A stretch of 64,000 nucleotides of DNA from Gammaproteobacteria bacterium (GTDB taxonomy: Bacteria > Pseudomonadota > Gammaproteobacteria > Steroidobacterales > UBA11654). Of the stretch, positions 27,808-43,741 are shown piece after piece. The notes under the pieces are model-generated. The model was not told the DNA's origin. It ran no database searches and saw only the letters and a program-made list of their open reading frames with translations. The stretch lies in assembly GCA_002717445.1 (NCBI GenBank), contig PBDY01000002.1:39186-103185 (forward strand). Reading direction: 5' to 3'. Positions within the stretch are counted from its first letter, which is position 1. Every line of letters starts with the position of its first letter. Made by a program: the position numbers and the translations under genes.

Positions 27808-28618
27808 TGATCTCGGCTCTTTTCATAAATAAAGAAATGAGCTGAACCGTCTCTGTTGTTCTGATCTCGGTTGAAGCTATCCCTGATTCAGCAAGAGACT
27901 CAATCTCAACTTCATGAAGATCATCTTTTATGATTTCTAATTTATTATGAAAGAAATCATCAATGGCTGACATGACCATGATTGGCGTACTTAATGTTTT
28001 TATTAATGATTTAAAGTCTTGATCCCAGACGGCTGCAAAAGCTTGTTCACGACCTTTGATTGATCTTATGGCACCTAAAAACTCGGTATTCACTAAATCA
28101 GAGTCATACGATGGAAAGAGAGACTTTATTAATTCAAATGTTTCTAAAAGATATTTTCCTTCAACGTCTTGCTCAATCCCAGATGAGGTCATTTTCTTGA
28201 ATGACTCTCTTTCATCCTTTTCCAGATAGGCCACTCCATTGAGCATCAGTGATACAGTCCGGTCTTTCCAGATATTTGCGATCTCAGCAGCAATGTGTGT
28301 ACCTGTGTGATGAGCATAAATATGAAAATTATCAATTCCAAGCGCTTCGATGGATTCACAGATCCAGTCACGATAATTTTCCATATTGGGATATCCCTTT
28401 GGATTAAAGGAAGATCCGAATCCAGGAGTGTCAAAAGCATATAAAGGCCTATCATCTAGCATCTCTTTCATCATCGGTTCATACATTATTGAACTTGTCG
28501 GCGTGCGGTGCAGAAGAATGAGAGGTATTCCGTCTTCACAATTATTCGTTCTATAGTGAATCTGACCGATTGGAAGAGATAAATATGATTTTTTTATAAG
28601 ATTATTATTCACTTTCAT
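27797..28618 (-). CDS. Alpha/beta-hydrolase fold protein (atypical nucleophile elbow)
   Basis: 273-aa ORF. ILLHRTPTSS and DTPGFGSS blocks fit the alpha/beta-hydrolase fold, but the elbow reads YAHHTGTHIA instead of GxSxG. Confidence 0.6.
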   Translation of the reverse strand: MKVNNNLIKKSYLSLPIGQIHYRTNNCEDGIPLILLHRTPTSSIMYEPMMKEMLDDRPLYAFDTPGFGSSFNPKGYPNMENYRDWICESIEALGIDNFHIYAHHTGTHIAAEIANIWKDRTVSLMLNGVAYLEKDERESFKKMTSSGIEQDVEGKYLLETFELIKSLFPSYDSDLVNTEFLGAIRSIKGREQAFAAVWDQDFKSLIKTLSTPIMVMSAIDDFFHNKLEIIKDDLHEVEIESLAESGIASTEIRTTETVQLISLFMKRAEITKA

Positions 28619-28668
28619 TATGATTCTTAGACTAATCTAATTGATGATAAATTGATATAATCGTCACC

Positions 28669-29232
28669 ATGAAAAGAATAATTATTGGAATCTCAGGCGC
28701 AAGCGGCGTTATTTATGGCATTCGGCTTCTTGAGATACTCAAAGAAATTGAAGGTGTTGAGTCACATCTCGTGATGACCAATGGTGCCAAACTTAATATT
28801 TCACTAGAAAGTGAGTTTGACTCAAAGACTGTCAAAGAGCTTGCTGATGTTGTGCATAGTGATAAAAACTTGGGAGCCAGTATCGCCAGTGGTTCATATG
28901 AAACAGAAGGCATGATTATTGCCCCATGTTCCATGAAAACGCTTTCTGGTGTTGCAAACTCATATGCTGTAAATCTTATCGTCAGAGCGGCAGATGTGGT
29001 GTTAAAGGAGGGCAGAAGCCTAATCATTATTCCGAGGGAAACACCCCTCCATTTGGGACACATTGATCTGCTTAGGAAGGTGTCGTTGATGGGCGCTCAT
29101 GTGGTTCCACCAAATCCAGCTTTCTATAACCATCCAGAATCAATTGATGACATCATTAACCATACCGTTGGAAGAGTTTTGGATTTGATTGGTATAGACA
29201 ATGAAGTGGTGAGCCGGTGGAAGGGCGTATAG
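28669..29232 (+). CDS. ubiX: Flavin prenyltransferase UbiX
   Basis: 187-aa ORF with IIIGISGASGVIYGIRLLE, APCSMKTLSG and RETPL blocks. Confidence 0.9.
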   Translation: MKRIIIGISGASGVIYGIRLLEILKEIEGVESHLVMTNGAKLNISLESEFDSKTVKELADVVHSDKNLGASIASGSYETEGMIIAPCSMKTLSGVANSYAVNLIVRAADVVLKEGRSLIIIPRETPLHLGHIDLLRKVSLMGAHVVPPNPAFYNHPESIDDIINHTVGRVLDLIGIDNEVVSRWKGV

Positions 29233-29238
29233 CAGAGC

Positions 29239-29751
29239 ATGACCGAATCATCTGTTGAAGGAGTTCAAAACAATGCCACTGAGATGCTCAAAGAGCACCA
29301 CACTCTCACCATCTCAACAAGAGACAATGCATCCGTTTGGTCTGCGACAGTGTTTTATGTCTCAGACTCAAATCTGAACCTGTTTTTTCTATCTTCAGAA
29401 AAGAGCAGGCATATACAACACATCAATATGAACCCCGAGGTTTCTGCAACAGTCTATAAGGATCAAAAAGATTGGGAAAAGCTTAAGGGAATTCAGATCT
29501 CAGGAACGGTCGAATCGGTCAAAGGATTGGAGAGGGAACACACCATCGATCAATATCTTGAAAAATATGAATACCTGAATCGCGTGATCAATCATCCATT
29601 AAATGAAGACGAAGAAAAAATTGGCTCACGATTTAAATCCATACTATTTTTTAAACTGAAGCCAAGTTTGATAAGGATCATTAATAACCAAGTGGCGTTT
29701 GGTCATAAAGAACAAATTGAGAAAAAAGGAGGGAAATGGGAGTTATCTTAA
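29239..29751 (+). CDS. PNPOx-fold (FMN-binding split barrel) protein, YhbP/UPF0306-like
   Basis: 170-aa ORF starting 6 nt after ubiX. It resembles E. coli YhbP as I recall it (..W.A.VFY...FFLS.EKSRH.. and a C-terminal LFFKLKPSLIRIINN..FGHK). Confidence 0.6.
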   Translation: MTESSVEGVQNNATEMLKEHHTLTISTRDNASVWSATVFYVSDSNLNLFFLSSEKSRHIQHINMNPEVSATVYKDQKDWEKLKGIQISGTVESVKGLEREHTIDQYLEKYEYLNRVINHPLNEDEEKIGSRFKSILFFKLKPSLIRIINNQVAFGHKEQIEKKGGKWELS

Positions 29752-30536
29752 AGATCGTCCGTTGAGTATTTTGGAAGCTGCCCTAGGTGAGCACCACTGT
29801 CAACGATTAAGACCTCTCCTGTAATCAAAGGTGCCCCTTCCAAAAACCAGACCAATACTTCTGCCACATCTTCAGCAGATGCCACTTTCTTAAGCGGAAG
29901 GTTGGTTTCGCCCTGTTTTATAAGAGATTCATATGCTTCATCACTCATTCCGCCTTTTAGCCATCGGGTTTTGATTGGGCCAGGAGCCACTGCATTGATT
30001 CGAATTTCAGGCCCTAAAACATGAGCCAAAGATTTAGTCATTGCATTGAGAGCCGCTTTTGAAGCAACATAAGCTATAGAGGACCCCACTGCGTTGACTC
30101 CTGCCAGTGATGAGTCATTTACGATGGCGCCCAAACCCTGTTTTTTCATGTGCGGGACGACCGCCTTTATCATTTGATAAGCTCCGACCACGTTCACTGC
30201 ATAAATTGACTGAAAATCATCCATGGACAAGCCATCTAAGTTTTCAAACGGATTGAATTTGGTGCGACCTGCATTATTGACAAGATAATCTATTTGACCC
30301 CATTGACTAATGGCTGCAGAAACCATCGCTTGGCATTCATCATCTTTTGAAACATCTGCTTGAAAAACAATTGTCTCTGCACCATGCTCTTCTGCCAGTT
30401 TAGCTGTCTCTAAGGCTTCATCTTTTGATCGCGTATAATTGATGACAACATTGCATTCTTTTTCTGCTAGAAGAATCGCAGTAGCTGCACCAACACCAGT
30501 TGCAGACCCGGTAATAATGGCTACTTTTTTACCCAT
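29748..30536 (-). CDS. SDR family oxidoreductase
   Basis: 262-aa ORF with TGSATGVGAA (TGxxxGxG), NNAG and YVASKAA (YxxxK) motifs. Confidence 0.85.
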   Translation of the reverse strand: MGKKVAIITGSATGVGAATAILLAEKECNVVINYTRSKDEALETAKLAEEHGAETIVFQADVSKDDECQAMVSAAISQWGQIDYLVNNAGRTKFNPFENLDGLSMDDFQSIYAVNVVGAYQMIKAVVPHMKKQGLGAIVNDSSLAGVNAVGSSIAYVASKAALNAMTKSLAHVLGPEIRINAVAPGPIKTRWLKGGMSDEAYESLIKQGETNLPLKKVASAEDVAEVLVWFLEGAPLITGEVLIVDSGAHLGQLPKYSTDDL

Positions 30537-30656
30537 ATAATCTCACTCGATATTGATTTTCTATTGTATCGGTTAAACTTAACAAAATCTTTGATTTAAT
30601 TTGGATACCTGACAAGGCACAATAATCCTATAGATTAAGATTCGAGGAGATAGAGA

Positions 30657-32153
30657 GTGCAATTTAATGACATGAGAGGATACATTGATGTCCTTAGAAA
30701 AGAAGACTTGCTGCATGATTTGAATATTCAACTCAATGTAGCCAGAGAAACATCTGAGCTTCAAGCGCTGATGAGACATTTGCATAATGAAAACGGTCCC
30801 GCACTCTTGTTAAATAATCTTGAAGGTTACAACATGCCGGATATACCTCTGCTATTTAATCCCTATGGAACTCGTGAAAGAACAGCAATGATTTTGGGAG
30901 AGAGAGATCCACTCAAAGCAAAAGCAAAGCATGCAAAAGTTTTAACCGATCAATCCAGTTGGATTGAACCAAATATTATCAGCAAAGAAGATGCGCCCTG
31001 TAAGCAAAATACAATAACAGATCGGAATATTGACCTCGCGAAGCAGCTTCCTCATGCATGGTTTGGCAAAGAGGGTCCATCGTATATTACTAATGCTGTT
31101 GTGATCACAAAGGATCCAGAAACAGGTGTTGCGAACACAGGCTGTTATCGACTGACACAATTATGGAATGCATCACATCCTCATGGGGAAATATACTCTG
31201 AAGAGGAGCAAAGAAGATGTTTATCGATCTTTGCATTCTGGAATCCCCCTGGTAATCATATCGGTCTTCACTGGGCAAAAGCGCAAGAAATGGGAAAACC
31301 ATTGGAAATTGCCATTGCATGTGTTGTTGACCCAGTGATCCAATTGGCCGGCGCAACCAGTTTGCCGTTTGGCTTGGATGAAATGAATTTTGCGGGTGGA
31401 TTAAAAGGAGAAGCGATCGATGTGGTTCCTTGCGAAACCGTTGATATTGAAGTGCCCGCAAGAGCAGAATTGATCATAGAGGGTCAATTTCTTCCAAATA
31501 GAGATATCACGATTGGTCCTCATTCTAACCCAATTGGTTACTATGATGATGAGCAATTATTTCCTCTTATGGAGGTTCAATGCATCACCCATAGAGATCA
31601 ACCTTTGTGGTATTCAACAATGGAAATGATGCCCCCATTTGATCACAACTATATGGCTTGTTTGCCAATAGAGGGTGAATTACTCAGCGATCTGCAAAGC
31701 AAGATTCCAGAGGTTAAAGATGTAGTGGTTACTCCAAACCTCAGCTATTTTGTTCAGCTTTCCGTTGACGGAGCTCAAAAGCCACATCCTGAGTTTGGAA
31801 AGTATGTTTTGCATGCAGTATGGGGTGCAAGCGGCAGATGGGGCAGAACGGCAAAAATTGCAGTTGTGATTGGACCGGATGTAAACCCTTACGATCTTAA
31901 TGAGGTTGAATGGGCAATATTGACTCGTGTGCAGCCACATACAGACACGATCATCAATCAATCCGGACAGGCATTCCTCATGGATCCATCAGCGCCAAAA
32001 GATTCCGGTCATGGAATTGCACTTCAATCCGAACAAATGGGCATTGATGCAACCATAAAGGTGTTTGAGCGTTTTCATTCATACCCTGAATACAGCAATG
32101 CTGACCAAGAAGCTGTTTCAGCCATTGCTGAGAAATTAAAGGGATCATTCTAG
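30657..32153 (+). CDS. UbiD family (prFMN-dependent) decarboxylase, substrate uncertain
   Basis: 498-aa ORF with a GTG start 7 nt after GAGGAG. It has the UbiD architecture ([24 protein letters not shown]), but it diverges from E. coli UbiD as I recall it. Confidence 0.8.
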
Positions 32154-32169
32154 TCTGCTGAATCAAAAG

Positions 32170-33789
32170 GTGACTGTGAGCAAGAAAACAAAGCTGTTTA
32201 GAGAATTACTACTGAGCAAAAATCTTGAATTCTTGCTTGAGGCACATAATGGAATCAGTGCAAAAATTGCAGAAGAGGCAGGCTTTAAGGGTCTTTGGGC
32301 AAGCGGACTAGCAATATCTGCCCAATACGGTGTCAGAGATAGCAATGAGGCCAGCTGGACACAAGTGCTTGAAAACATAGAGTTCATGTCAGATGCCAGC
32401 AATATCCCAATCATGCTCGATGGCGATACTGGCTACGGTAACTTTAATAATGTTAGGCGTTTGATTAAAAAACTCGAACAGAGAAACATTGCGGCAGTTT
32501 GCATTGAGGATAAGCTTTACCCTAAAACCAATAGTTTCATAGATGGAGATAAGCAAGAACTTGCTGATATAGACGAATTTTGTAGTCGAATTAAGGCAGG
32601 CAAGGACGCCCAGATTGATGATGAATTCTCAATCATCACTAGGATTGAGGCTTTCATAGCCGGATGGGGATTAAGTGAGGCTTTGAAAAGAGCAGAGGCA
32701 TATCATCAAGCAGGCTCGGATGCGATTTTAATCCACAGTGCAAAATCTGAGCCAAGTGAAGTTTTGGCTTTCAAAAAAGAGTGGGGTGACACTTCGCCTG
32801 TGATTGTGGTTCCAACAAAATATTATTCCACTCCAACAGAGGTGCTGGAGCAAGAAGGATTTTCCATTGCAATTTGGGCGAACCACATGATCAGATCTTC
32901 AATCAAAGCCATGCAAGAATCCGCAGAAGAAATCTTTGCATCATCGTCAATTCTATCAACTGAAGGTGAGATTGCTTCTGTCAAAGAGGTTTTTCGGTTA
33001 CAAGGCGTTTCTGAATTAAAAGAGGCTGAAGAAAATTATTTACCAAAAAAAGAAAGGACAACAGATGCACTCATTCTTGCTGCTTCCCGAGGAGAAGCCA
33101 TGGGCAGTCTGACCGATGAACAACCCAAAACCATGATCCCACTGAAAAATAAAAGCATGTTAGAGCACATTACTGATATATATCGGAATCACGGAGTCAG
33201 TAAAATTCATGTTGTCCGAGGATACAAAAAAGAAGCAATCAATTTTCCCGAGTTGAACTATATAGACAATGATGATTTTGAGACCACTTCTGAGCTGTCT
33301 TCTTTTCATATGGCCATTGATCAGACCGATTCCGATATATATTGTTCATTTGGGGATGTTTTATTTAAGCCTTATTTGCTTCAATTAATGGATGATTTAG
33401 AAGACGATTTAGTGATTGTTGTAGATACACAATGGCAGGATTCTGTAAATAAAGACAGAGCAGCTGACTATGTAAAATGTTCCGAACCTCATTCCAGAAC
33501 TAATTATGGAAATCCAATATTTATAAAGTCTGCAGGAGAAGCACTGGATCAGGAGTCCATTCATGGAGAATGGATGGGTGTTATTAAAATTTCCTCTAAG
33601 GTTATGCCATTGATAAAAAAAGAGGTGAATCACCTATCAAAGGGAGAGGATTTTCATTCAATGAAAATGCACCATTTATTGGAACATTTATGCAAAAATA
33701 AGCAACCAATCAGAGTTGTTTACACCACGGGAAATTGGCTAGATGTCGACACACTCGAAGACGTCATAAGGGCTAATAATTTCATATGA
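32170..33789 (+). CDS. pepM: Phosphoenolpyruvate mutase fused to a C-terminal nucleotidyltransferase domain
   Basis: 539-aa ORF with a GTG start. Residues ~1-295 are near-colinear with known PEP mutases ([65 protein letters not shown]-type blocks). Residues ~300-539 form a LicC/MobA-like NTP-transferase fold ([26 protein letters not shown]). Confidence 0.9.
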
Positions 33790-34931
33790 TTTGTGCTGAA
33801 AAATTTTTAGATGAAGCATTTTATCTGGGTTTTAACGCCTATACAGGTGTTCCTTGTTCATTTTTGAAGCCTTTGATCAATGCATCAATTGAGACCGATC
33901 ATTTATCATACATTCCTGCTGTCAATGAAGGTGACGCAGTAGCTATTGCGGCTGGAATATATCTTGGTGGAGGTTTGCCTGTCGTCATGTTTCAAAATTC
34001 AGGATTGGGCAATGCCGTCAATCCATTTACATCCTTGATTCAAACCTTCGAAATACCCATTTTAATGATTGCCACACTGAGGGGTGACCCAGAGAATGAG
34101 CCTGACGAGCCTCAGCACCAACTTATGGGTAAGATCACAACCCAGATTCTTGATTTGATGGAAGTCAGTTGGTCTTGGTTTCCTGGAAACGAAGATGAAT
34201 TGACTGTAACAATGGAGACGATTAAAGATCGGATAATCGATTACCAAAAACCACATGTTTTAGTGATGAAGAAAGGTTCGGTTGAGCCGTATGAGCTTAC
34301 TGACCAATCTAAACATAAGAATGACCAAGCTTTAACCATAGATGATTGTGTGAACGAAACATCAGATTTGGTGAGTAGAGGCGATGTCATGAAGATGATC
34401 ATAGAGAAAACAACCGAAAAAGATGATTTGATCATCGCTACCACAGGTTATTCTGGAAGAGAGCTTTATGCTGCCGAGGACCGGAACAATCATTTCTATA
34501 TGGTTGGCTCAATGGGCTGTGCGATAGACATAGGATTGGGTTTATCAATGATGCAGCCGAATAAAAGAGTGATTGTCATCGATGGCGATGGGGCCCTCCT
34601 CATGCGTCTAGGTGCCATGTCAACAGTTGGTTTTATGGCTCCTGAGAATCTCACCCATATTGTTTTGGACAATGGTGTGTATGAGTCTACAGGCTCTCAA
34701 AAAACAGTTTCCTCAATACTAGATTTTAAAATGTTTGCGCATTCAAATTGTTATAGAAACTCATCGAAATTGAATTCCTTGGAAGACCTCGATTCGTTGC
34801 TTGAATCAAATAAGAAAGGACCAAACTTCATTCATTTCCCAATTAAGGCAGGAGTACCAAACAAACTTCCTCGCCCTTTAATCTCACCAAATGAGGTTGC
34901 ACAAAGATTTAGAGGAAATATAAATGATTAA
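33786..34931 (+). CDS. ppd: Phosphonopyruvate decarboxylase (ThDP-dependent)
   Basis: 381-aa ORF with an ATGA overlap onto pepM. It has ThDP enzyme blocks ([32 protein letters not shown]...[10 protein letters not shown]), and its position directly after pepM is canonical. Confidence 0.85.
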
Positions 34932-36021
34932 TCAAAAGCAAAATATTTTACTTAATCCAGGCCCAGTCAATATGTCGGATCGTGTAAAGAGACGCATGAT
35001 CAATGAGGATTTCTGTCACAGAGAGAATGAGTTCTCAAGTTTGATACAAGAGGTTAATTCTCAGCTGGCGAGTATTTATGACGATATGGAGGATTATGAA
35101 TCTGTGATCCTAACCAGTTCTGGAACTGGAGCCGTTGAAGGCATGTTGACCTCTTTTATACATGACGAGAAGTCACTGGTGATCAGCAATGGTGTTTATG
35201 GTGAGAGAATGGAAAAGATTTTACGTGTTCAGGGTAAGGCATACCAGACGATCCAATTTAACTGGCTTGATACAATTGATGTTCAATCAATTGCAGACTG
35301 TGTTGATGCCGATCGGAGCATTAAAAATCTAATCATGGTTCATCATGAAACGACCACTGGTCGTTTGAATCAATTAAGAAAAATAGGCCAATTGTGTAAG
35401 GACTATGGTCTTAATTTATACCTTGATGGTGTCAGTAGTTTTGGCGCAGAAGAAATTATGGCAAATGAAATCAACCTGAAAGCCGTTGCTGCATCTGCAA
35501 ATAAATGCCTCCATGGCGCACCCGGTCTTGCTTTTGTGATTGCACATAAGGATCAATGGGAAAAAGCTCCCAGGGAACCCTCTGGTGTGTACTTTGATTT
35601 ACATCAGTATTATGGCATGCAAAAAACAGACGGATTCTCGCCATTTACTCAAGGCACCCATTTGGTTGCCGCTCTTCATGAGGCAATTCTTGAATTCAGA
35701 GAAATGGGCGGATGGCAGGCAAGAAATACTTTATTTCAGCAAAGGGCAGAACAAATCTATGTTTGCTTGCATCAACTTGGTATTGAAACACTGATACCGA
35801 ATGAAGATTACTCATCGGTACTGAGGTCTTATCAACTGCCACAAGGCATTGGGTATCAAGATTTACATGCCTACATGAAAAGCAATGGATTTGTGATTTA
35901 TCAAGGACAAGGCAGCTTCAAGCAAAACATTTTTAGAATTTCAACAATGGGCCACATTGAAGAATCGGATATCACTTTATTGTGTGATTTGTTTAAAAAT
36001 TTTTTCAAAAACCATGGTTAA
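34924..36021 (+). CDS. 2-aminoethylphosphonate:pyruvate aminotransferase (class V aminotransferase)
   Basis: 365-aa ORF with an 8-nt overlap onto ppd. LLNPGPVNMSDRVK at the N-terminus and SANKCLHGAPGLAF (PLP-Lys context) fit the class V family, and the context completes the PepM-Ppd-transaminase route. Confidence 0.8.
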   Translation: MINQKQNILLNPGPVNMSDRVKRRMINEDFCHRENEFSSLIQEVNSQLASIYDDMEDYESVILTSSGTGAVEGMLTSFIHDEKSLVISNGVYGERMEKILRVQGKAYQTIQFNWLDTIDVQSIADCVDADRSIKNLIMVHHETTTGRLNQLRKIGQLCKDYGLNLYLDGVSSFGAEEIMANEINLKAVAASANKCLHGAPGLAFVIAHKDQWEKAPREPSGVYFDLHQYYGMQKTDGFSPFTQGTHLVAALHEAILEFREMGGWQARNTLFQQRAEQIYVCLHQLGIETLIPNEDYSSVLRSYQLPQGIGYQDLHAYMKSNGFVIYQGQGSFKQNIFRISTMGHIEESDITLLCDLFKNFFKNHG

Positions 36022-36772
36022 AGAAGCTGTAATTTTAGCAGCAGGGATGGGAAGCCGATTGGGTGGTCAAAATGATCAAAAGCCTAAAGGGCTTTTGCAG
36101 TTTGGTAGTCAATCCATTATTGAGGAGTCCATCAATAAGCTGATCAAGAATGGCATTGAGAAAATATGGATTGTCACGGGCTATCAATCTCAATACTTTA
36201 AAGAATTAACCAATCATTACAATTCAATCGTAAGCCTTGTGGATAATGCAGAGTATGATCAATCGGGAACATTGCATTCACTGTCGATGGTTGCAGACAA
36301 GGTTCGCTCTCCATTTTTATTGCTAGAGTCCGATATTATTTTTGAATACAGGGCAATTCAAACGATTCTAAATCATCAAAGTGAAAACTGTATTTTATTG
36401 AGCGGTTTCAGTGATTGTGGCGATGAGGTATTCGTTGAAGCCAATCAGGAAGAATTGGTAATGATGTCAAAAGACATGAGTGAGCTCAGCAGCCCGCCAG
36501 CTGGAGAATTGGTTGGAATTACAAAAATAGGGGAAGAATTATTTAAAATGATGATGCAGTTTCATGAAAGCGATGAAAAAAACAAATTGGCTGATTATGA
36601 AACCGATGCATTGGTTGCAGTTGCTAAAGTGATCTCAATTTCCTGCCTAAAAATAGAAGACTTAATATGGTCAGAAATAGATGATCAAGATCATCTCAAA
36701 CGTGCAAGGGAAGAAATTTATCCCATGGTTGTTGAAACTGATTTAAAATATTTTCCTAATTCATCGAAATAA
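36014..36772 (+). CDS. Stand-alone nucleotidyltransferase (LicC/MobA-like NTP-transferase fold)
   Basis: The start is set at ATG 36014, giving an 8-nt overlap (ATGGTTAA) with the transaminase stop. The N-terminus AVILAAGMGSRLG...KPKGLL is the canonical NTP-binding loop. Confidence 0.7.
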   Translation: MVKEAVILAAGMGSRLGGQNDQKPKGLLQFGSQSIIEESINKLIKNGIEKIWIVTGYQSQYFKELTNHYNSIVSLVDNAEYDQSGTLHSLSMVADKVRSPFLLLESDIIFEYRAIQTILNHQSENCILLSGFSDCGDEVFVEANQEELVMMSKDMSELSSPPAGELVGITKIGEELFKMMMQFHESDEKNKLADYETDALVAVAKVISISCLKIEDLIWSEIDDQDHLKRAREEIYPMVVETDLKYFPNSSK

Positions 36773-36784
36773 AGGCATTTATAG

Positions 36785-36982
36785 GTGACAAAAAGGATAA
36801 TAATTTTCTCAATGGTATCGGTTTGTTATGTCAATTCAGCTCATGCATACCTTGATCCCAGTACAGGAGGCATGCTGATTTCAGCAATACTGGGAATGTT
36901 TGCAACACTGGGTTTGGTGATTAAATCATATTGGTATAAATTAAAGTCACTCTTTAAAAAGAAAGAAAAAAGGATTGATTGA
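36785..36982 (+). CDS. 65-aa membrane peptide, unknown function
   Basis: GTG start 12 nt after the previous stop. A hydrophobic N-terminus ending in SAHA is followed by YLDPSTGG, a TM segment (MLISAILGMFATLGLVI) and a Lys-rich tail. It is kept because it sits inside a tightly coupled operon. Confidence 0.45.
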   Translation: MTKRIIIFSMVSVCYVNSAHAYLDPSTGGMLISAILGMFATLGLVIKSYWYKLKSLFKKKEKRID

Positions 36983-36991
36983 TCATTCGAT

Positions 36992-38122
36992 ATGACGACT
37001 TTTTTTAAAGGATATCAAGGATATCGAACATACAAAAAACTACCCAAATCTTTCAAAAAGATTGTTTTTTATTCAGAGAGTTTTCAAGACTGGCATCATC
37101 TCAAGCCTCTCTTGAATACATTACTAAATCAAGAAATAGATACCACCTATGTTGCTTCAGACGAGAAAGACCCTGGATTGCTAAAGCAGTCTCCAAATTA
37201 CAAATCGATCTTCATAGGAAAGGGTTTCTTTAGGATTTTGTTCTTTCAGTACTTAAAGGCAAAGTTGTTTATTTTAACGATGATGGATTTGAATAATTTT
37301 GAACTAAAGAGATCCATGCACTCAGTGCACTACGTATATATTTTTCATAGTTTAACCAGCACACACATGGTGGATACAGAAGAATCATTCGATCACTATG
37401 ACACCATATTATGTGCTGGCCCCCATCAAAAGAAAGAAATTGAATTGAGGGAGCAAAACAAAGATTTGAATGCCAAGAATCTTGTTTCCTATGGGTATCC
37501 GAGACTTGAAAGGTTGATCGAAATGAATGCGAAGCCGGTTACCCATAATAAAGTGATACTTTTGGCTCCCACATGGGGCGAGCAGAGCATTATCAATCTT
37601 ATAGGAATGGAGATATGCTCGATCATCATTGATCATGGTTATTCCTTGATCTTGAGACCGCATCACGAAACCCTTAAGCGCTCACCAGAGCTAATCAATG
37701 AAATAGAAAATCAGTATTCACACACTGAAAAATTTCGATTGGTCACAGAGATGGGGGATTCTCAGTCGCTCTTGCAGTCTGACTTATTAGTTTGTGATTG
37801 GTCGGGAACTGCAATTGAGTATTCACTGGGATTAGAAAAGCCCGTCATTTTCATCGACATACCCCCAAGAGTCAGGAATCCAAATTGGGAGGAGATTAAA
37901 TCTGAACCATTGGAAATGAGCATCAGAGAAAAAGTGGGTCGAATCATCTCTCCATCAGAACTTGAAGAGCTGCCGTCAACCATTGATGAATTACTCAATG
38001 ATGATCAACTCTTTTCAGATCAGATAGAATCACTGCGTGAAGAATTTGTATATAATTTAAGTCATTCAGAAAGCGTTGGTCTAGAAGAGATAAAGAAATT
38101 ACTAAAAACACTCAAAAACTAA
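36992..38122 (+). CDS. TagF/TagB-like CDP-alcohol phosphotransferase family protein
   Basis: 376-aa ORF. The blocks YIFHSLTSTH, SYGYPRLERL, ILLAPTWGE, ILRPHHE and LLVCDWSGTAIEYSLGLEKPVIFID parallel the TagF-family blocks (WHG.., GYPR.D, YAPTWR, KPHP, LITDYSS..KP) as I remember them. Confidence 0.6.
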   Translation: MTTFFKGYQGYRTYKKLPKSFKKIVFYSESFQDWHHLKPLLNTLLNQEIDTTYVASDEKDPGLLKQSPNYKSIFIGKGFFRILFFQYLKAKLFILTMMDLNNFELKRSMHSVHYVYIFHSLTSTHMVDTEESFDHYDTILCAGPHQKKEIELREQNKDLNAKNLVSYGYPRLERLIEMNAKPVTHNKVILLAPTWGEQSIINLIGMEICSIIIDHGYSLILRPHHETLKRSPELINEIENQYSHTEKFRLVTEMGDSQSLLQSDLLVCDWSGTAIEYSLGLEKPVIFIDIPPRVRNPNWEEIKSEPLEMSIREKVGRIISPSELEELPSTIDELLNDDQLFSDQIESLREEFVYNLSHSESVGLEEIKKLLKTLKN

Positions 38123-39894
38123 ATTATTCTTCAGCATGGTTCCTCTGGTATGGCTTTTTTAATGGGCTTATAGCCTTTCTCATTGGAATTCAGTATCTCC
38201 TTTTTTTTCCTTCAAGCACGACATTGCTTTCTGCAAGCTATGTTCTGTTTGCAACCTTGACTCATTTTATATCAATACATTTTCTACCCCTTCTCTTGCT
38301 CTCTTTGGTGCATCGGATTGCAGGCATGAAAAAATTCCTTATCCTCTTAGCAATAATTTACGCATCAACCATTAATACACTGATTGTCATGGATGCAAAC
38401 TTCTTTGCAGTAAACCGATTTCACATGAGTCTTATGACTGCGATCCTTTTTGACAGTGAAACTTATCTTTTTTCAATCCTCCAGTTCATCATTATGGTCG
38501 TCTTTCATTATTTTCTTGGTAATGAAATCGGGAAGTCTCTGGAAAGGAGAAGAAATAAGTCTTTTATTGGTGTTTCTCTCGCAGTAGCCACCATGAGTGC
38601 ATGGATTTATGTCCAAGGTGTCCACATTTGGGCCGATGCAAGCTATCAATCTTCCATCACCACTTTTACGCGATATTTGCCATTGTTCAGACCTATTCAC
38701 GCCAAAAGAGATCTTGCTAGATTGGGTTTAATCGATTCGGATCAATTGAGGAAACAGAATTTGTCTAAGAAAACAATGGATTCTGAGTTACTTTATCCAA
38801 AGAATGAGCTGCTTTGTCGCAGCGATACACAATCAGAAAATGTTTTGGTTATTTTAATCGATGCTTTGCGTCCTGAGATGATCAATGGTGAGATCATGCC
38901 CAATACTGCAAAACTTTTTTCTGAAAGCATCAGTTTTGATAATCACTACTCAGGCGGAACCTCCTCAAGAATGGGTATGTTTTCACTCTTTTATGGTTTG
39001 CCCTCTACATATTGGAGAGTGTTTCATGACAATCTAAAACCCGCATTAATGATTACAAAGTTTGATGAGAGCAATTATGACATACACGCCATCAGTTCAT
39101 CGGGCTTGGGAAGTCCTGCAGTGCTTGATAGGACCGCCTTTGCAGGCATTTCCAGTATCAACCTCAGACCACTTGGTGCTTCCGAAAAAGCCAGCCTAAA
39201 ATTGGTGACAAATGGTTGGGTAGAGACAATCAAGCAAAACCAAGATCCTAAATTCTTCACATTGCTTCATTATGACCCTCCAATCGATGAAGCCAACCCA
39301 AGTGAATCTTTAAATATCGCCAACAAATTTTCAAGAAAGAATGATACATCTCACAATCTTGAGGTCTCAAGATATATACAGTCCATTCGTGATGTGGATA
39401 TGGAAATTGGAAGGTTAAGCAATGTTTTACGAGAAAGGGATATGCTCAAAGACACCATTGTAATTCTAACCTCAGACCACGGTTATGAGCTCGATGATTA
39501 TCAAACCAATTATTATGGCCATTCCAGTAATTATAGTCCCGCCCAAACCAAGGTTCCTTTAAAAATCATTTGGCCAAACAGGGATTCTCAGAAATATTCT
39601 TTTCGATCATCGCACCATGATTTTGCACCAACTTTATTAAAGGAAGTATTGGGTTGTACAAACAGCTACTCTGATTACAGCACTGGCAATAATTTATTTC
39701 AGCAAAAGCCTTGGAAATATTTGATTGCCGGGAGTTATGATTCATTCGCTGTCTTGACGCCTGAAAAAGTCATCATATCCTATGGAAGTTATTTTGAGGT
39801 CAGAGATAAAAATTACAATCTCTCTGAAATTGAAGGCAAGGATTTGAAAGACATGGAGGATGCAATATCCAATATGAGTGAGTATTACAAATAA
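38098..39894 (+). CDS. YejM/PbgA(LapC)-like inner-membrane protein with periplasmic alkaline-phosphatase-superfamily domain
   Basis: Colinear with E. coli YejM from memory (VHIWADASYQ, FSLFYGLPSTYW). It also carries an ILTSDHGYE metal motif. The reading frame is open from 38056 and encodes the conserved first TM (SAWFLWYGFFNGLIAFLIGIQYLLFF) upstream of the first canonical start (TTG 38224). The start is provisionally placed at ATT 38098, and confidence in that start is only about 0.4. Confidence 0.7.
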   Translation: MTKNTQKLNYSSAWFLWYGFFNGLIAFLIGIQYLLFFPSSTTLLSASYVLFATLTHFISIHFLPLLLLSLVHRIAGMKKFLILLAIIYASTINTLIVMDANFFAVNRFHMSLMTAILFDSETYLFSILQFIIMVVFHYFLGNEIGKSLERRRNKSFIGVSLAVATMSAWIYVQGVHIWADASYQSSITTFTRYLPLFRPIHAKRDLARLGLIDSDQLRKQNLSKKTMDSELLYPKNELLCRSDTQSENVLVILIDALRPEMINGEIMPNTAKLFSESISFDNHYSGGTSSRMGMFSLFYGLPSTYWRVFHDNLKPALMITKFDESNYDIHAISSSGLGSPAVLDRTAFAGISSINLRPLGASEKASLKLVTNGWVETIKQNQDPKFFTLLHYDPPIDEANPSESLNIANKFSRKNDTSHNLEVSRYIQSIRDVDMEIGRLSNVLRERDMLKDTIVILTSDHGYELDDYQTNYYGHSSNYSPAQTKVPLKIIWPNRDSQKYSFRSSHHDFAPTLLKEVLGCTNSYSDYSTGNNLFQQKPWKYLIAGSYDSFAVLTPEKVIISYGSYFEVRDKNYNLSEIEGKDLKDMEDAISNMSEYYK

Positions 39895-41339
39895 TGTCAA
39901 TATTGATCAGAATTTATCTGCTGATTTTGATATTTTCTCATCAAGTACTGGGGCAGGAACAATCTCTCGATCAGAATCATTTTGACCAGATCACATTTGA
40001 TCAAGACACACCTCTGATCCAAAAGTGGGTGACGTGTTATCCAGATTGCTCATCCCAAAATAAAAACTCTTTTGAGATCAATACTGATTTCAGAACAGTC
40101 TTAAAAATCATGAATAGCAAAGGAGATTCTCACAATGACTATGTGATGACATCAAGAAAAGTAGGCGATGACTTTAAGATTTCGTACGCCCGAAGCAATT
40201 ATGAAGATGGGATATCAGAAGTGATTTTCACAACTGACACAAAGTTTGGTTTTTTGGAGCTAACGGTTCGATCTGATGCTGATATTCAGATTGAAATCAA
40301 CCCAAAGAATTTATTAAAAGAAGGCGATATCTATGGAATGGGCGGTATCTACAATGGCACATGGCTAGTAAGGGTTGATGATCGTGGCTCTGAAAACCTA
40401 TCCAATTTGAGTCAAGCTATTACTCAGGAAGGTTCATGGATTGGTGTTCGAACAAGATTCTGGTCTTTCCTTGTTTCCCCTAGAAATAATGAAGCATTGG
40501 TCAATAAAATCAATGAATCAGAGCTGGGATTAAGATTTAGATCAACTGCTGTAGATGGCTTGCATCGGTTTGTCTTGTATTTTGGCCCTCTGAGTACAAA
40601 ACAGTTTGTAGGCTCAGAGTCAGAACTAAGGAAACTTATGTACGCTGCACTTTGGGACTGGTTGAGACAATTATGCTTCTTTATTGAGTGGATCTTCATT
40701 TGGCTTTTAGAATTTTCTGGAAATGCAGGTTTAGCAATTCTTCTGCTTGCATGCGTACTAAAAGTCATCATTTATCCTCTCAATCGAATTGCTGAAAAAT
40801 GGCAGGACGATGTGAATGTTATTCACTCTATGCTGCAACCTAAGATCAATGAAATAAAATGCAATTTCTCAGGCGAAGAGGCCAATCACAGAATCATGAA
40901 ACTGTATAAAGATAAAAACATAAGTCCTTTTTACTCAATAAAGAGTTTTTTTGGTTTTCTGATACAGATACCAATATTCATAGCGGTCTTTGATGTATTG
41001 GGAGAATCAATATATCTATTGGGAGAGCCTTTTGTTTTTATTAATGACCTAAGCAAGCCTGATCAATGGGCAATGTTGCCATTCTTTATTCCTTATTTTG
41101 GGTCTTCAATGAATCTTTTACCATTTTGCATGATGATCATCAGCATTTTGAGCGCATATCTTTATACAGATAAAAATTTAAACAAAAATTTATTAAGCAA
41201 CCAAAAAAGAAAATTATATTTGATGTCTTTCTTATTTTTTGTCTTGCTGTTCACTTTTCCATCCGGGATGGTGCTTTATTGGACAACTTCGAATTTCCTT
41301 CATTTGATGCAAATGCAAATAAAAAAGGCTCTTCATTGA
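39894..41339 (+). CDS. YidC/Oxa1 family membrane protein insertase homologue
   Basis: 481-aa ORF with a TAATG junction to the upstream gene. It has an N-terminal anchor/signal, a shortened P1-like domain (WIGVRTRFWSFLVSP; LYFGPL) and a core with GNAGLAILLLACVLKVIIYPL, MLQPKINEIK, MKLYKDKNISPF, LIQIPIFIAVF and FPSGMVLYWTTSN. Confidence 0.75.
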   Translation: MSILIRIYLLILIFSHQVLGQEQSLDQNHFDQITFDQDTPLIQKWVTCYPDCSSQNKNSFEINTDFRTVLKIMNSKGDSHNDYVMTSRKVGDDFKISYARSNYEDGISEVIFTTDTKFGFLELTVRSDADIQIEINPKNLLKEGDIYGMGGIYNGTWLVRVDDRGSENLSNLSQAITQEGSWIGVRTRFWSFLVSPRNNEALVNKINESELGLRFRSTAVDGLHRFVLYFGPLSTKQFVGSESELRKLMYAALWDWLRQLCFFIEWIFIWLLEFSGNAGLAILLLACVLKVIIYPLNRIAEKWQDDVNVIHSMLQPKINEIKCNFSGEEANHRIMKLYKDKNISPFYSIKSFFGFLIQIPIFIAVFDVLGESIYLLGEPFVFINDLSKPDQWAMLPFFIPYFGSSMNLLPFCMMIISILSAYLYTDKNLNKNLLSNQKRKLYLMSFLFFVLLFTFPSGMVLYWTTSNFLHLMQMQIKKALH

Positions 41340-41350
41340 AGAGCCTTTTT
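41321..41350. terminator. Bidirectional rho-independent terminator
   Basis: AAAAAA, then GGCTCTT (41327-41333), loop CATTG, AAGAGCC (41339-41345), then TTTTT. It sits between the convergent yidC-like gene and the 41366-41971 gene, and the yidC-like stop codon lies in the hairpin. Confidence 0.65.
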
Positions 41351-41365
41351 AGGATTGATGTTTTT

Positions 41366-41971
41366 TTACATGAAAAATCCGTGACCAGCACCTACCATGC
41401 TCATCAGCATTGGAATGGACAACATTGTGTTGGTTCTTGAAGCGAGAAAAGCAGTTCTTGCTGCTTTTGCTTTTTCTTCTGCAGTGGCCTCAACGATCCC
41501 CAAAACTTTTTTCTGGTTTGGCCAAATTAAAACCCAAACGTTGAACAACATAATGGTCCCCATCCATGCACCGATACCAATTGTTGTGGCATATGCATTC
41601 CCTGTTCTCATACCCAGTTCAAAAGCATCTCCAAGTACACCATTTAGATGCAAATAAGTTGCACCAGTCAACCATGTGACTAAGGCTGCCCATCTAAACC
41701 ACAGAAGCGCTCTTGGAGCGACATACTTAGTGATTGCTGCTGGCCCTGGCCCACCTTCATCAGCATTTGCTTCCGCGACGGAGGGAACTTGGACAAAATT
41801 AAAGTAATAAAGAAGACCGATCCAAGCCACACCTGCCGCCACATGTAACCAAATCACGATTGATTGGACACCATTAACTGAAGCGGTTGAATTTCCAATT
41901 GCAATCACTACAGCGATAACCAGTCCAGTTATAATCGTTCCAGTGATTTTATCCAAAGGATTCATAAACAT
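41366..41971 (-). CDS. Integral membrane protein, unknown function (resembles the N-terminal membrane domain of PuuD-type proteins)
   Basis: 201-aa ORF with 4-5 hydrophobic helices. The WLHVAAGVAWIGLLYYFNFVQ block resembles the WLH..A..WIG..FYF block of urate hydroxylase PuuD N-termini as I recall them. The functional call is weak. Confidence 0.5.
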   Translation of the reverse strand: MFMNPLDKITGTIITGLVIAVVIAIGNSTASVNGVQSIVIWLHVAAGVAWIGLLYYFNFVQVPSVAEANADEGGPGPAAITKYVAPRALLWFRWAALVTWLTGATYLHLNGVLGDAFELGMRTGNAYATTIGIGAWMGTIMLFNVWVLIWPNQKKVLGIVEATAEEKAKAARTAFLASRTNTMLSIPMLMSMVGAGHGFFM

Positions 41972-42101
41972 ACCCCTAATAATTTCTTAACAAACAGAAT
42001 TATAACAATTTTTCTATGAATCAAACAAATCGTCCAAAAATTATTCATTATTTTTAGGATTTTAGAATCTATAATATAACCATCTTAATTAGGAGTAATC
42101 G

Positions 42102-42419
42102 ATGACACTAGATGAACGAATAAAGAATCAATTGGAAGAGTTTCCTTTAATTCTGTACATGAAAGGTACGCCAGATTTTCCACAATGTGGATTCTCAGCG
42201 AAAGTTTGTGGAATCCTCAAAGCCTCAAACAAACGATTTGCCTTCGTCAATATTCTCGAAGATCATGAATTAAGAGAGGGCCTTAAGACCTTTTCAAATT
42301 GGCCAACTTTCCCTCAACTTTATGTCAATGGTGAGCTGGTCGGGGGATCAGATATCATTGAACAACTGTTTGAATCCGGCGAACTCACGACATTTCTTGA
42401 TTCTGTTCAAGAAAACTAG
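42102..42419 (+). CDS. grxD: Monothiol glutaredoxin (Grx4 family)
   Basis: 105-aa ORF with the CGFS active site (FPQCGFSAKV) and WPTFPQLYVNGELVGGSDI. Confidence 0.9.
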   Translation: MTLDERIKNQLEEFPLILYMKGTPDFPQCGFSAKVCGILKASNKRFAFVNILEDHELREGLKTFSNWPTFPQLYVNGELVGGSDIIEQLFESGELTTFLDSVQEN

Positions 42420-42442
42420 TTGCTTGTATCGGAGGATAGGTC

Positions 42443-43741
42443 ATTTCAGAAAAAAAGAAAATATCAGTTCCTGATCTTGGTGATTTCAGCGATGTAGAGA
42501 TCGTTGAAATGCATGTGCAGCCTGGAGACAACCTTAATATAGATGACCCAATCCTCACTTTAGAGACTGAAAAAGCAGCCATGGAGATTCCCAGTCCTAT
42601 TTCTGGGGCATTAATCGAGGTGTATGTCCAAAATGGAGACAAAATTAATCAAGGCGATGATCTGTGTTTGATCGAGGCTATAGAGACTGATCCTGTAGCC
42701 GAAGAAAATGAGGAGAAGGATACAGAACCAGAAATAAACAATGAAGGATCTCCCCAGATGACACGGGCTCAAAAGCCAGTTGAGCGGAGTCAAAAAAATG
42801 ATCGCCAATTCTTCAATACCTCTTTCGCCTCTGTGCATGCAAGCCCTTCAGTTAGAAAACTGTCACGCGAGCTGGGCGTAGATCTAAATCAAGTCAATGG
42901 ATCCGGAATGAAGGGCCGGATTCTTCCAGAGGATCTTAAATCATTCGTCAAAGGAGTAATGAGTGGAAAGATTGCTAGCGTTCAATCTGCTCTTCCAAAA
43001 CTGCCTGAAGTTGATCATTCTGCATTTGGAGATATCGAAAGCGTTCCATTGAGTCGGATAAAAAAGATATCGGGACCAAGACTTCAAGCCAGTTGGATCA
43101 ATATACCTCATGTCACGCAGCATGATGAGGTCGACATCAATAATCTGGAACAACTGAGAATGGATTTAAAGAAATCTTATCAATCAGATGGTATATCTCT
43201 TTCAATTCTTCCATTCATTGTTATGGCAGTTTGCCAACTCTTGAAGCAAATGCCTGATTTCAATTCATCGCTGGACGAGAAGAATTCAGCACTCATCCAT
43301 AAAAAATACATCAACATAGGATTTGCAGCAAATACCGATCAAGGGCTTATGGTTCCTGTCATAAAAAATGCAGATCAGAAAAGCTTAAAGAAAATCTCAC
43401 AAGAGCTTGTCAGGTTGAGTGAAGATGCCAGAAGCGGAAAGATCAAGTTAGAAGATCTTCAAGGCGGAACCTTTACGATATCGAGTCTGGGCGGTTTTGG
43501 GGGAGTTGGATTTACACCAATCATTAATCCACCCGAGGTTGCTATACTTGGCGTGGCTCGAGCACAAATAAGACCCATCATGATTAAAGGAAAATTCTTA
43601 CCAAGACTTATTCTTCCTCTTTCATTGTCTTATGACCATCGAGTCATTGACGGCGTTGGAGGCATTCAGTTTACAACTGCACTCAAGCAACTGCTTGAGA
43701 ATCCAGATTCATTTCTGTCTCAGGAGATCAGCGATGGTTGA
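42443..43741 (+). CDS. aceF: Dihydrolipoyllysine-residue acetyltransferase (E2 of a 2-oxo acid/pyruvate dehydrogenase complex), single lipoyl domain
   Basis: Lipoyl domain (TLETEKAAMEIPSP), E3-binding domain (SPSVRKLSRELGVDLNQVNGSGMKGRI) and catalytic domain (SLSYDHRVIDG). The start is placed at ATT 42443, 6 nt after GGAGGA, because the first ATG (42509) would truncate the lipoyl domain. Confidence 0.8.
   Translation: MSEKKKISVPDLGDFSDVEIVEMHVQPGDNLNIDDPILTLETEKAAMEIPSPISGALIEVYVQNGDKINQGDDLCLIEAIETDPVAEENEEKDTEPEINNEGSPQMTRAQKPVERSQKNDRQFFNTSFASVHASPSVRKLSRELGVDLNQVNGSGMKGRILPEDLKSFVKGVMSGKIASVQSALPKLPEVDHSAFGDIESVPLSRIKKISGPRLQASWINIPHVTQHDEVDINNLEQLRMDLKKSYQSDGISLSILPFIVMAVCQLLKQMPDFNSSLDEKNSALIHKKYINIGFAANTDQGLMVPVIKNADQKSLKKISQELVRLSEDARSGKIKLEDLQGGTFTISSLGGFGGVGFTPIINPPEVAILGVARAQIRPIMIKGKFLPRLILPLSLSYDHRVIDGVGGIQFTTALKQLLENPDSFLSQEISDG

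Follow-up and report, generated by a model that had tools for sequence, protein, structure and literature searches.

How are phosphonates, once made, fixed to the surface of the cells that make them? A large part of the dissolved organic phosphorus in the sea is phosphonate, and phosphonates feed the aerobic production of methane. Their synthesis is understood up to CMP-AEP, the cytidylyl-activated form of 2-aminoethylphosphonate (AEP). The enzymes that attach phosphonates to cell surfaces have been called 'enigmatic' (PMC6697681). This question is raised by a 64,000-nucleotide stretch of contig PBDY01000002.1 (hereafter the window), from a gammaproteobacterium, in which eight consecutive genes lead from AEP synthesis into a TagF-like transferase, a membrane mini-protein of 65 amino acids, a YejM-like enzyme and a YidC-like protein. 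The eight products very probably act together in envelope phosphonylation, and the membrane module that they include is conserved and apparently undescribed.

Organisation of the gene cassette

The listing of open reading frames (ORFs) and direct reading of the sequence place eight ORFs in series on the + strand between 32170 and 41339 (Table 1), in a window of 39% G+C whose composition shows no break at the region. The genes for phosphoenolpyruvate (PEP) mutase (pepM) and phosphonopyruvate decarboxylase (ppd) share an ATGA at 33786-33789, and 8-nt overlaps join ppd to the AEP transaminase (AEPT) gene (ATGATTAA, 34924-34931) and the AEPT gene to that for a PntC-type cytidylyltransferase (ATGGTTAA, 36014-36021). 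A 12-nt gap (36773-36784) then precedes the mini-protein ORF, which has a GTG start, and a 9-nt gap (36983-36991) separates this from the TagF-like ORF. At the distal end, TAATG at 39892-39896 couples the YejM-like stop to the YidC-like start. These junctions, all read directly, are as originally predicted.

The junction of the TagF-like and YejM-like genes had been given as a probable 25-nt overlap at 38098-38122. The YejM-like frame is open from 38056 and holds no ATG, GTG or TTG before 38224. Both the DUF3413 match and the alignment with Escherichia coli YejM start at residue 6 counted from 38098, the ATT at 38098-38100 is conserved in all closely related loci (L003:8205, L009-L012:8205 and L013:1347, with the equivalent site in L002:8190; L-numbers denote loci and P-numbers proteins compared here), and an ATG takes its place in more distant ones. 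A start at this ATT is probable, and the overlap with it, although the codon is not ATG, GTG or TTG. A programmed frameshift joining the two frames was rejected, and the ATT start preferred, because distant relatives have separate genes with an ATG start there. Gene callers shorten the YejM-like gene to 501 amino acids, and the annotation of the NCBI metagenome-assembled genome (MAG) GCA_030740815.1 (L091) starts it at an ATA.

Synthesis and activation of 2-aminoethylphosphonate

PepM, then Ppd, then an AEP transaminase is the textbook route to AEP. PepM (380 bits to TIGR02320, cutoff 319.6) and Ppd (402 bits) pass their equivalog cutoffs; AEPT falls marginally below its own (346.9 bits against 360.8 for TIGR03301), which is its best match by far. 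The three genes overlap, and the three identities proposed earlier are upheld.

Formation of CMP-AEP had been ascribed to the nucleotidyltransferase domain fused to PepM. It is better placed on the standalone protein at 36014-36772, which the original prediction had left unnamed, because the fused domain is weakly LicC-like (29 bits; PF12804, 40 bits), whereas the standalone protein matches Tde1415 (PDB 6PD1/6PD2) at E 2e-48 and 168 bits over residues 1-243, the matching region in Tde1415 being its N-terminal PntC domain. Tde1415 is the PntC of Treponema denticola, for which there is a crystal structure with CMP-AEP (Rice et al. 2019, PMC6697681). The translation carries G-M-G-S-R...P-K, where the sequence reads GMGSRLGGQNDQKPK, in keeping with the signature GXG(T/S)RX4-8PK. 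The protein is, by homology, a PntC-type cytidylyltransferase, and its substrate preference is assigned on the same ground. Homology likewise indicates the whole route from PEP through phosphonopyruvate, phosphonoacetaldehyde and AEP to CMP-AEP.

The P-loop of the fused domain (33064-33120, residues ~299-318; ...QPK) departs from the GXG(T/S)R...PK of PntC and LicC. This domain may differ from the standalone PntC in substrate, and even in activity.

The transferase and membrane proteins

The TagF-like protein matches PF04464 (Glyphos_transf) above its gathering score (40 bits, cutoff 22.1, E 3e-10, residues 128-287), and its AlphaFold2 (AF2) model (predicted local distance difference test, pLDDT, 96.4) finds TagF as the top PDB match (3L7K, E 5e-13, template-modelling (TM) score 0.61), ahead of other enzymes of the glycosyltransferase-B (GT-B) fold by about four orders of magnitude. 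The TagF/TagB-like identity given earlier is thereby sustained. An exhaustive protein search gave 646 cluster representatives at E <= 1e-30, and a family alignment of 70 diverse homologues built from its matches shows H119, S123, D137 and H224 to be invariant and H125 to be kept in at least 90%; the relatives from a second protein search were all about 80% identical, so that it informs abundance, not diversity. TagB and TagF move glycerol-phosphate from CDP-glycerol. No TagD-type glycerol-3-phosphate cytidylyltransferase lies within the cassette, and the adjacent nucleotidyltransferase is PntC-like, so that CMP-AEP is suggested as the donor and the TagF-like enzyme as a candidate phosphonyl (AEP) transferase.

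In an alignment of 26 orthologues, the mini-protein has a variable signal peptide that ends in A-x-A. The mature chain opens with a near-invariant Y-L-D-P-S-T-G-S and continues through a single helix into a basic tail, K-x-Y-W-Y-K-L-K. Neither Pfam nor NCBIfam gave a match to the mini-protein, which is kept in 71 loci. As the conserved orthologues have a signal peptide and one predicted transmembrane helix, the 65-amino-acid membrane peptide first noticed as an ORF is, on comparative evidence, a real gene.

Over its whole length the YejM-like protein aligns with E. coli YejM (6XLP, 5I5H; E 5e-52), but it falls short of orthology, with 225.5 bits against a cutoff of 825 for the YejM equivalog NF038282. 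Across 75 orthologues, D255 and D460-H461 are invariant, S289 and H506 are each present in 74, S290 in 69, and G462, E464 and D508 in at least 95%. E. coli YejM has G-R at the position of the metal-site D-H pair. This family, judged from the alignment, retains the complete alkaline-phosphatase-type metal site that E. coli YejM has lost, and catalysis is predicted. The YejM-like identity and the S-D-H-G motif of the original prediction both stand, the latter as an invariant feature, and the Asp, the Asp-His pair and the hydroxyl nucleophile of an EptA/LtaS-type active site are all present.

The YidC-like protein passes the core models (PF02096, 105 bits against 35; TIGR03592, 109 against 84) and fails the housekeeping equivalog test, since the best full-length YidC model gives 101 bits against cutoffs of 365 to 1094. 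Its AF2 model (pLDDT 82.7) has E. coli YidC as top Foldseek match (6AL2, E 1e-18, TM 0.63), with an N-terminal anchor, a shortened P1 beta-sandwich, a cytoplasmic helical hairpin and the five-helix core. The predicted fold superposes on full-length E. coli YidC including the beta-sandwich, in agreement with the complete YidC/Oxa1 homologue claimed earlier. An invariant lysine, K290, aligns with the groove residue Arg366 of E. coli YidC, a protein reported in 2024 to scramble glycerophospholipids in vitro (PMC11047089). Neither rpmH nor rnpA is present in the window or in any of the 96 loci compared (1.6 Mb in total). In the periplasmic domain, W45 and a C-x-x-x-C pair (C48/C52; 40029-40052, residues 46-53) are found in at least 90% of the family; this points to a disulfide bond or a site for ligand binding that E. 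coli YidC lacks.

Table 1. Features of the locus, in window coordinates.
Feature	Position	Strand	Basis
PEP mutase (PepM) with C-terminal nucleotidyltransferase domain (residues ~300-539)	32170-33789	+	TIGR02320, PF13714, PF12804
Phosphonopyruvate decarboxylase (Ppd)	33786-34931	+	TIGR03297, 402 bits, cutoff 312.5 (passed)
2-Aminoethylphosphonate transaminase (AEPT)	34924-36021	+	TIGR03301, PF00266
Standalone PntC-type CTP:AEP cytidylyltransferase	36014-36772	+	match to Tde1415
Mini-protein, 65-aa pre-protein	36785-36982	+	signal peptide, one transmembrane helix, basic tail
TagF/TagB-like GT-B phosphotransferase, 376 aa	36992-38122	+	PF04464 and AF2 fold
YejM/PbgA-like: DUF3413 transmembrane domain and periplasmic alkaline-phosphatase-superfamily domain	38098-39894	+	PF11893 118 bits, PF00884 98 bits
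Full-length YidC/Oxa1 putative paralog	39894-41339	+	PF02096, TIGR03592, AF2 fold
Bidirectional intrinsic terminator hairpin	41321-41350	both	13-bp stem, -17.4 kcal/mol, z = -3.8
UbiD-family decarboxylase	30657-32153	+	TIGR00148, 270 bits

Conservation of the cassette

A survey of 185,579 species genomes, one per species, with two peptide patterns of the YidC-like family followed by tblastn, found 309 species-level genomes with a relative of the YidC-like protein, a count that is not a measure of how detectable housekeeping YidC is. The carriers are almost all uncultured Gammaproteobacteria (Woeseiaceae, Steroidobacteraceae and 'Chromatiales'), and homologues are plentiful in marine and other metagenomes. 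The first contexts inspected all had the identical eight-gene order, and a 3.57-Mb genome keeps the eight genes in order though its YidC-like protein is 34% identical and its flanks are unrelated. Among 58 informative loci, those with at least 8.3 kb of upstream sequence, the full compact colinear cassette is present in 40, a cassette with an insertion in six and a rearranged one in two; in three further loci an insertion shifts pepM beyond the retrieved stretch. Of 81 loci, 46 show a 4-nt overlap between the YejM-like stop and the YidC-like start and 27 a 1-nt overlap, 73 in all. The cassette appears to be retained as a unit because the flanks differ between lineages, and the co-occurrence survey that had been called for thus returned one conserved cassette over about 300 species, with its last two genes coupled.

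Partial versions also occur. Three loci (L052, L055 and L074) have the mini-protein, TagF-like, YejM-like and YidC-like genes alone, with unrelated genes upstream; L039 has the YejM-like and YidC-like genes alone, and in L084 a lone YidC-like gene lies by lipopolysaccharide (LPS)-core glycosyltransferases, not by rnpA. L006 was set aside as evidence for a cassette without pepM: in the comparison of L006:1-5948 with L005, identity is 99.8% from a point 15 nt into the PntC gene, and unrelated minus-strand genes (PMT_2 and others) replace pepM, ppd and the transaminase gene, which may reflect a chimeric assembly or, alternatively, a natural deletion or replacement.

Three MAGs (L019, L030 and L033) carry a 5-6 kb insertion between the mini-protein and TagF-like genes, with a LytTR-domain regulator and a TonB-dependent receptor and, in L019, an HD-domain protein. 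The inserted genes (LytTR regulator, TonB-dependent receptor, HD-domain protein and a methyltransferase) gave no functional clue. An identical protein is indexed in 138 assembly-collection blocks, among them contigs of ENA (a TARA Oceans marine-metagenome project), of JGI and of an NCBI MAG; the host is an abundant, uncultured ocean gammaproteobacterium.

The distal module in other lineages

Beyond these relatives, the distal genes recur in other company. In P0374 a YidC core (residues 29-213) is fused to a TagF-like domain. The gene order at its locus, L089, begins with a PPDK_N/PEP-utilizer protein, followed by a glutamine-amidotransferase-like protein, then a nucleotidyltransferase, P0374 itself, a 73-amino-acid peptide carrying A-F-A|Y-I-D-P-G-T-G-S and a sulfatase-family protein. 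L096 has the same gene set with a separate short YidC core, and a Y-[ILV]-D-P-G-[ST]-G peptide is found in all three modules of this type that lack pepM (L089, L094 and L096). The large kinase-like protein of the module, glutamine-kinase-like, passes NF004508, and the amidotransferase has gamma-glutamyl-CDP-amidate hydrolase as its best family, below cutoff. The phosphoramidate enzymes of Campylobacter jejuni are a glutamine kinase, a cytidylyltransferase and a gamma-glutamyl-CDP-amidate hydrolase (PMC6429109), and we infer that the upstream genes of L089, L094 and L096 encode a phosphoramidate-type pathway resembling it. In L095, the pair of TagF-like and nucleotidyltransferase genes adjoins genes for PepM, for a Ppd in split form, for an iron alcohol dehydrogenase and for a cupin-type protein. 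This is a methylphosphonate-type layout, in what is, by gene content, probably a thaumarchaeal locus.

These partners in L089, L096 and L095 tie the TagF-like enzyme to cytidylyl-activated phosphorus-head-group pathways, and its recurrent companions are the YidC core, the mini-protein and an alkaline-phosphatase-superfamily enzyme. Because it recurs in other lineages with phosphoramidate-type genes, the distal module (nucleotidyltransferase, TagF-like enzyme, mini-protein, YidC core and sulfatase-like enzyme) looks like a portable installer of phosphorus head groups. As such, the link of the distal genes to phosphonates holds for the cassette with pepM and is not exclusive, since the module also accompanies phosphoramidate-type genes, sometimes away from pepM. 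Homologous trios in genomes lacking pepM had been named as evidence against a phosphonylation system; they are found in part, and the outcome widens the functional reading and does not refute it.

Elsewhere, TagF-like family members occur as fusions with an ABC-transporter ATPase domain (P0308) or with a formyltransferase-like domain (P0251), and in L094 a formyltransferase-like gene lies 3' of the TagF-like gene. JGI labels several standalone TagF-like proteins of ~390 amino acids 'YidC/Oxa1 family membrane protein insertase' (P0406, P0410, P0434, P0448, P0449, P0452, P0456 and P0478). One possible explanation is annotation transfer from YidC::TagF-like fusions, which would then be commoner than the one seen.

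Relation to known systems

The known Pnt clusters (Rice et al. 2019, PMC6697681; Li & Horsman 2022, PMC8942020) share the proximal genes of the cassette, namely the Ppm-nucleotidyltransferase fusion, Ppd, AEPT and a second PntC, and their phosphonate, as here, is bound for the cell surface. They continue with a LicD-like or CDP-alcohol phosphotransferase and an oxygenase, whereas the window continues with the TagF-like, mini-protein, YejM-like and YidC-like genes; PF04464, PF00884 and PF02096 are unmentioned in these two papers. Marine surveys have noted sulfatase-like and transferase genes near pepM. In the literature searched there was no report of pepM linked with YidC, PF04464 or a YejM paralog and no description of this gene combination, in line with the earlier remark that it was not known to have been characterised.

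The TagB and TagF enzymes of wall teichoic acid share the GT-B fold, PF04464 and an implied cytidine-nucleotide donor with the TagF-like protein, which differs in being a single domain of ~380 amino acids, remote in sequence, in a Gram-negative host, with a presumed CMP-phosphonate donor and in the company of a YidC core and a mini-protein. Similarly, YejM/PbgA/LapC of Enterobacteria has the same architecture of a five-helix DUF3413 domain and a periplasmic alkaline-phosphatase-fold domain, but the window protein keeps the Asp-His ligands and is encoded within a biosynthetic cassette, overlapping a yidC-like gene. Enzymes of the EptA/LtaS class take phospho-head-groups from a donor lipid and place them on acceptors in the envelope, and one of them, BcsG, partners the small single-helix BcsF. 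EptA/EptC/PptA, LtaS, OpgB and BcsG likewise combine a multi-helix N-terminal anchor with a periplasmic metal-dependent domain and a hydroxyl nucleophile; the YejM-like protein differs in having no detectable sequence membership of that class and a predicted Ser nucleophile, and its head group would be a phosphonate.

The YidC/Oxa1 insertases, including second copies such as SpoIIIJ/YqjG and YidC1/YidC2, have in common with the YidC-like protein the full YidC fold and a positive groove residue. Unlike them, the window copy lacks the rpmH-rnpA context, has a shortened P1 with a Cys pair and a groove Lys in place of Arg, and is the last gene of a small-molecule biosynthetic operon, with one relative fused to a transferase. 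A biosynthesis-dedicated YidC in a Gram-negative organism was not found in the literature searched. Finally, the O-methyl phosphoramidate (MeOPN) pathway of C. jejuni and the Lic phosphocholine pathway follow the same logic, in which a phosphorus head group is made, CTP-activated and placed on a polymer at the cell surface. In L089, L094 and L096 the distal module is preceded by homologues of the first three MeOPN enzymes, whereas the window uses AEP. One paper treats the MeOPN transferases Cj1421 and Cj1422 as genes apart from a CDP-glycerol transferase.

Proposed mechanism and alternatives

In the proposed scheme, the TagF-like enzyme would act at the inner face of the cytoplasmic membrane and transfer the AEP phosphonyl group from CMP-AEP to the hydroxyl of a membrane-bound carrier, most likely diacylglycerol, to yield phosphatidylethanolamine in phosphono form, or a glycan linked to polyprenyl or lipid. 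The YidC-like protein and the mini-protein would form a membrane platform for this enzyme, and the hydrophilic groove with its invariant lysine could give the charged head group a way to the outer leaflet; the YidC-like protein may instead insert the mini-protein and the YejM-like enzyme. The YejM-like enzyme would then take AEP off the lipid donor and hand it to an acceptor in the periplasm or outer membrane, much as EptA, LtaS, OpgB and BcsG do with phospho-head-groups, and the overall logic would be that of Arn- and Gtr-type modification, with cytoplasmic loading, flipping and periplasmic transfer. We give this specific three-stage mechanism slightly less than an even chance. A broader reading, by which a YidC-family protein has been co-opted from insertion as platform and scramblase for a lipid-linked phosphorus head group, within an unrecognised portable envelope machine fed by different pathways (AEP here, phosphoramidate elsewhere), is attractive but tentative, and on balance doubtful.

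Several observations weigh against the scheme. At its nucleophile position the YejM-like protein has Ser, where EptA and LtaS have Thr, and its matches comprise YejM and sulfatases alone, with no EptA- or LtaS-specific models or PDB chains among them. The TagF link rests on Pfam and the predicted fold because the family sequence profile found no PDB chain at E <= 1, and the conserved histidines, known from the family's own alignment, are candidate counterparts of TagF H444/H584. In the protein search for further YidC::TagF-like fusions, P0374 was the sole one, on one Logan contig. The YejM-like gene is absent from L021, L024 and L031, and L094 has the peptide, the upstream enzymes of the L089 type and the TagF-like gene with no YidC-like or sulfatase-like gene, so the periplasmic half seems dispensable in some lineages. 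In addition, the scheme gives no part to the nucleotidyltransferase domain fused to PepM.

The alternatives differ chiefly in what they make of the YidC-like and YejM-like proteins. That these are housekeeping copies chancing to lie 3' of an AEP operon is barely credible: they stay with the cassette while the flanks change, their genes overlap in 73 of 81 loci, no rpmH or rnpA accompanies them, their scores are far under the housekeeping equivalog cutoffs (~101 against at least 365 for YidC, 225 against 825 for YejM), about 300 of 185,579 species genomes passed the YidC-like-family patterns and tblastn, and YidC cores occur in analogous modules of other lineages, once fused to the TagF-like enzyme. 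The M13 procoat is the classic YidC substrate, and the mini-protein, with its signal peptide and single helix, has a procoat-like topology. The decoration could be completed in the cytoplasm, the TagF-like enzyme putting AEP on a lipid-linked glycan or LPS precursor for export by MsbA, Wzx or an ABC system, with the YidC-like protein as dedicated insertase or chaperone for the mini-protein and the five-helix YejM-like protein, and the latter trimming, sensing or regulating. This would suit a YidC-like protein predicted to keep all the structural parts of an insertase (P1, cytoplasmic hairpin, five-helix core, positive groove residue), the fusion of a TagF-like enzyme with an ABC ATPase in P0308, which points to ABC export in some systems, and the standing of E. 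coli YejM, by molecule names and established knowledge, as an LPS-binding regulator with no proven transferase activity. Yet the housekeeping YidC is normally enough for such substrates, the intact Asp-His/Ser site across 75 orthologues favours catalysis, and the YidC::TagF-like fusion is hard to square with a transient insertase role; we regard cytoplasmic decoration as rather unlikely.

A phosphonolipid as end product is less likely still. The TagF-like enzyme would here replace a CDP-alcohol phosphotransferase and make AEP-diacylglycerol, a phosphate-sparing or hydrolysis-resistant lipid that the YidC-like and YejM-like proteins would merely distribute or sense. The proximal half equals that of the Burkholderiales_CDP-OH putative phosphonolipid clusters (Li & Horsman 2022, PMC8942020), YejM/PbgA binds cardiolipin and LPS (by molecule names), YidC scrambles phospholipids (PMC11047089), and phosphate sparing would be relevant in the oligotrophic ocean of the host lineage. 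Profile searches, however, found neither a CDP-alcohol phosphotransferase nor an acyltransferase in the cassette, the periplasmic alkaline-phosphatase-superfamily enzyme is conserved, translationally coupled and, on its predicted active site, catalytically complete, and the module is shared with a phosphoramidate-type pathway whose sole characterised product is the capsule-sugar decoration of C. jejuni (PMC6429109).

The mini-protein itself might also be the acceptor, with the YejM-like enzyme placing AEP on a Ser, Thr or Tyr of Y-L-D-P-S-T-G-S. PptA and EptC attach phospho-forms to pilin and FlgG, so that protein-modifying enzymes of the alkaline-phosphatase superfamily are established; the Y-x-D-P-x-T-G-S motif is near-invariant, hydroxyl-rich, predicted to lie at the periplasmic membrane surface and conserved above the enzymes, and the peptide accompanies the module into distant lineages. 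Against this, L094 has the peptide and the TagF-like gene without a sulfatase-like gene, and a stoichiometric peptide seems a costly target for an eight-gene pathway, which leaves this a very improbable reading.

Transcript boundaries and neighbouring genes

The loop of the terminator hairpin holds the YidC-like stop codon, and the A and T runs that flank the hairpin mean that it serves both convergent genes. All other + strand terminator-like matches in the region are short (5-8 bp, with 3-4 G-C pairs), so a single strong terminator at the operon end, as first described, is borne out. At the other end, the UbiD ORF stops 16 nt before the pepM start, as read directly, and a promoter-like site was seen upstream of the UbiD ORF only. 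The eight coupled ORFs and their one strong terminator favour the claim of one transcript, which needs amending upstream, since with the UbiD end 16 nt from pepM the transcript probably comprises nine genes in this lineage. UbiD precedes the cassette in the marine clade only (L002, L003, L009-L012, L015, L017 and L018); it is a lineage-specific upstream gene outside the conserved cassette, probably co-transcribed with it. In more distant relatives (L001 and L007) a PhyH-type dioxygenase replaces UbiD at this position.

Directly upstream, 28669-32153 holds genes for a UbiX-like flavoprotein, a PNPOx-like protein, a divergent short-chain dehydrogenase/reductase and the UbiD-family decarboxylase. 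Downstream, the convergent minus-strand gene at 41366-41971 encodes a PF06181 (Urate_ox_N) membrane protein. A PF06181 gene also follows the cassette within ~8 kb in remote lineages (L001:19730-20332; L008:17557-18144), where the other flanks differ. Rfam models found no RNA element in 28000-43000.

No canonical start codon precedes the lipoyl domain in the gene for the E2 component of a pyruvate/2-oxoacid dehydrogenase (42440-42510). The gene's frame is open from 42440, and a start at its first ATG (42509) would truncate that domain. In the same-species NCBI MAG annotation (L091, GCA_030740815.1) the start is an ATT, where the window has ATA (42461). The host organism may repeatedly use ATT or ATA starts.

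Biological significance

The cassette is a concrete candidate for the machinery of phosphonate attachment. It also provides natural material on whether YidC-family proteins act on lipids in vivo and on the capabilities of a catalytically intact YejM-type protein, and the YidC-containing module could credibly be an envelope machine of a new kind. Its reuse alongside genes of phosphoramidate type suggests a general way of placing unusual phosphorus head groups on bacterial envelopes. If this is true, in marine archaea the TagF-like/nucleotidyltransferase half, as in L095, may add to the marine phosphonate pool.

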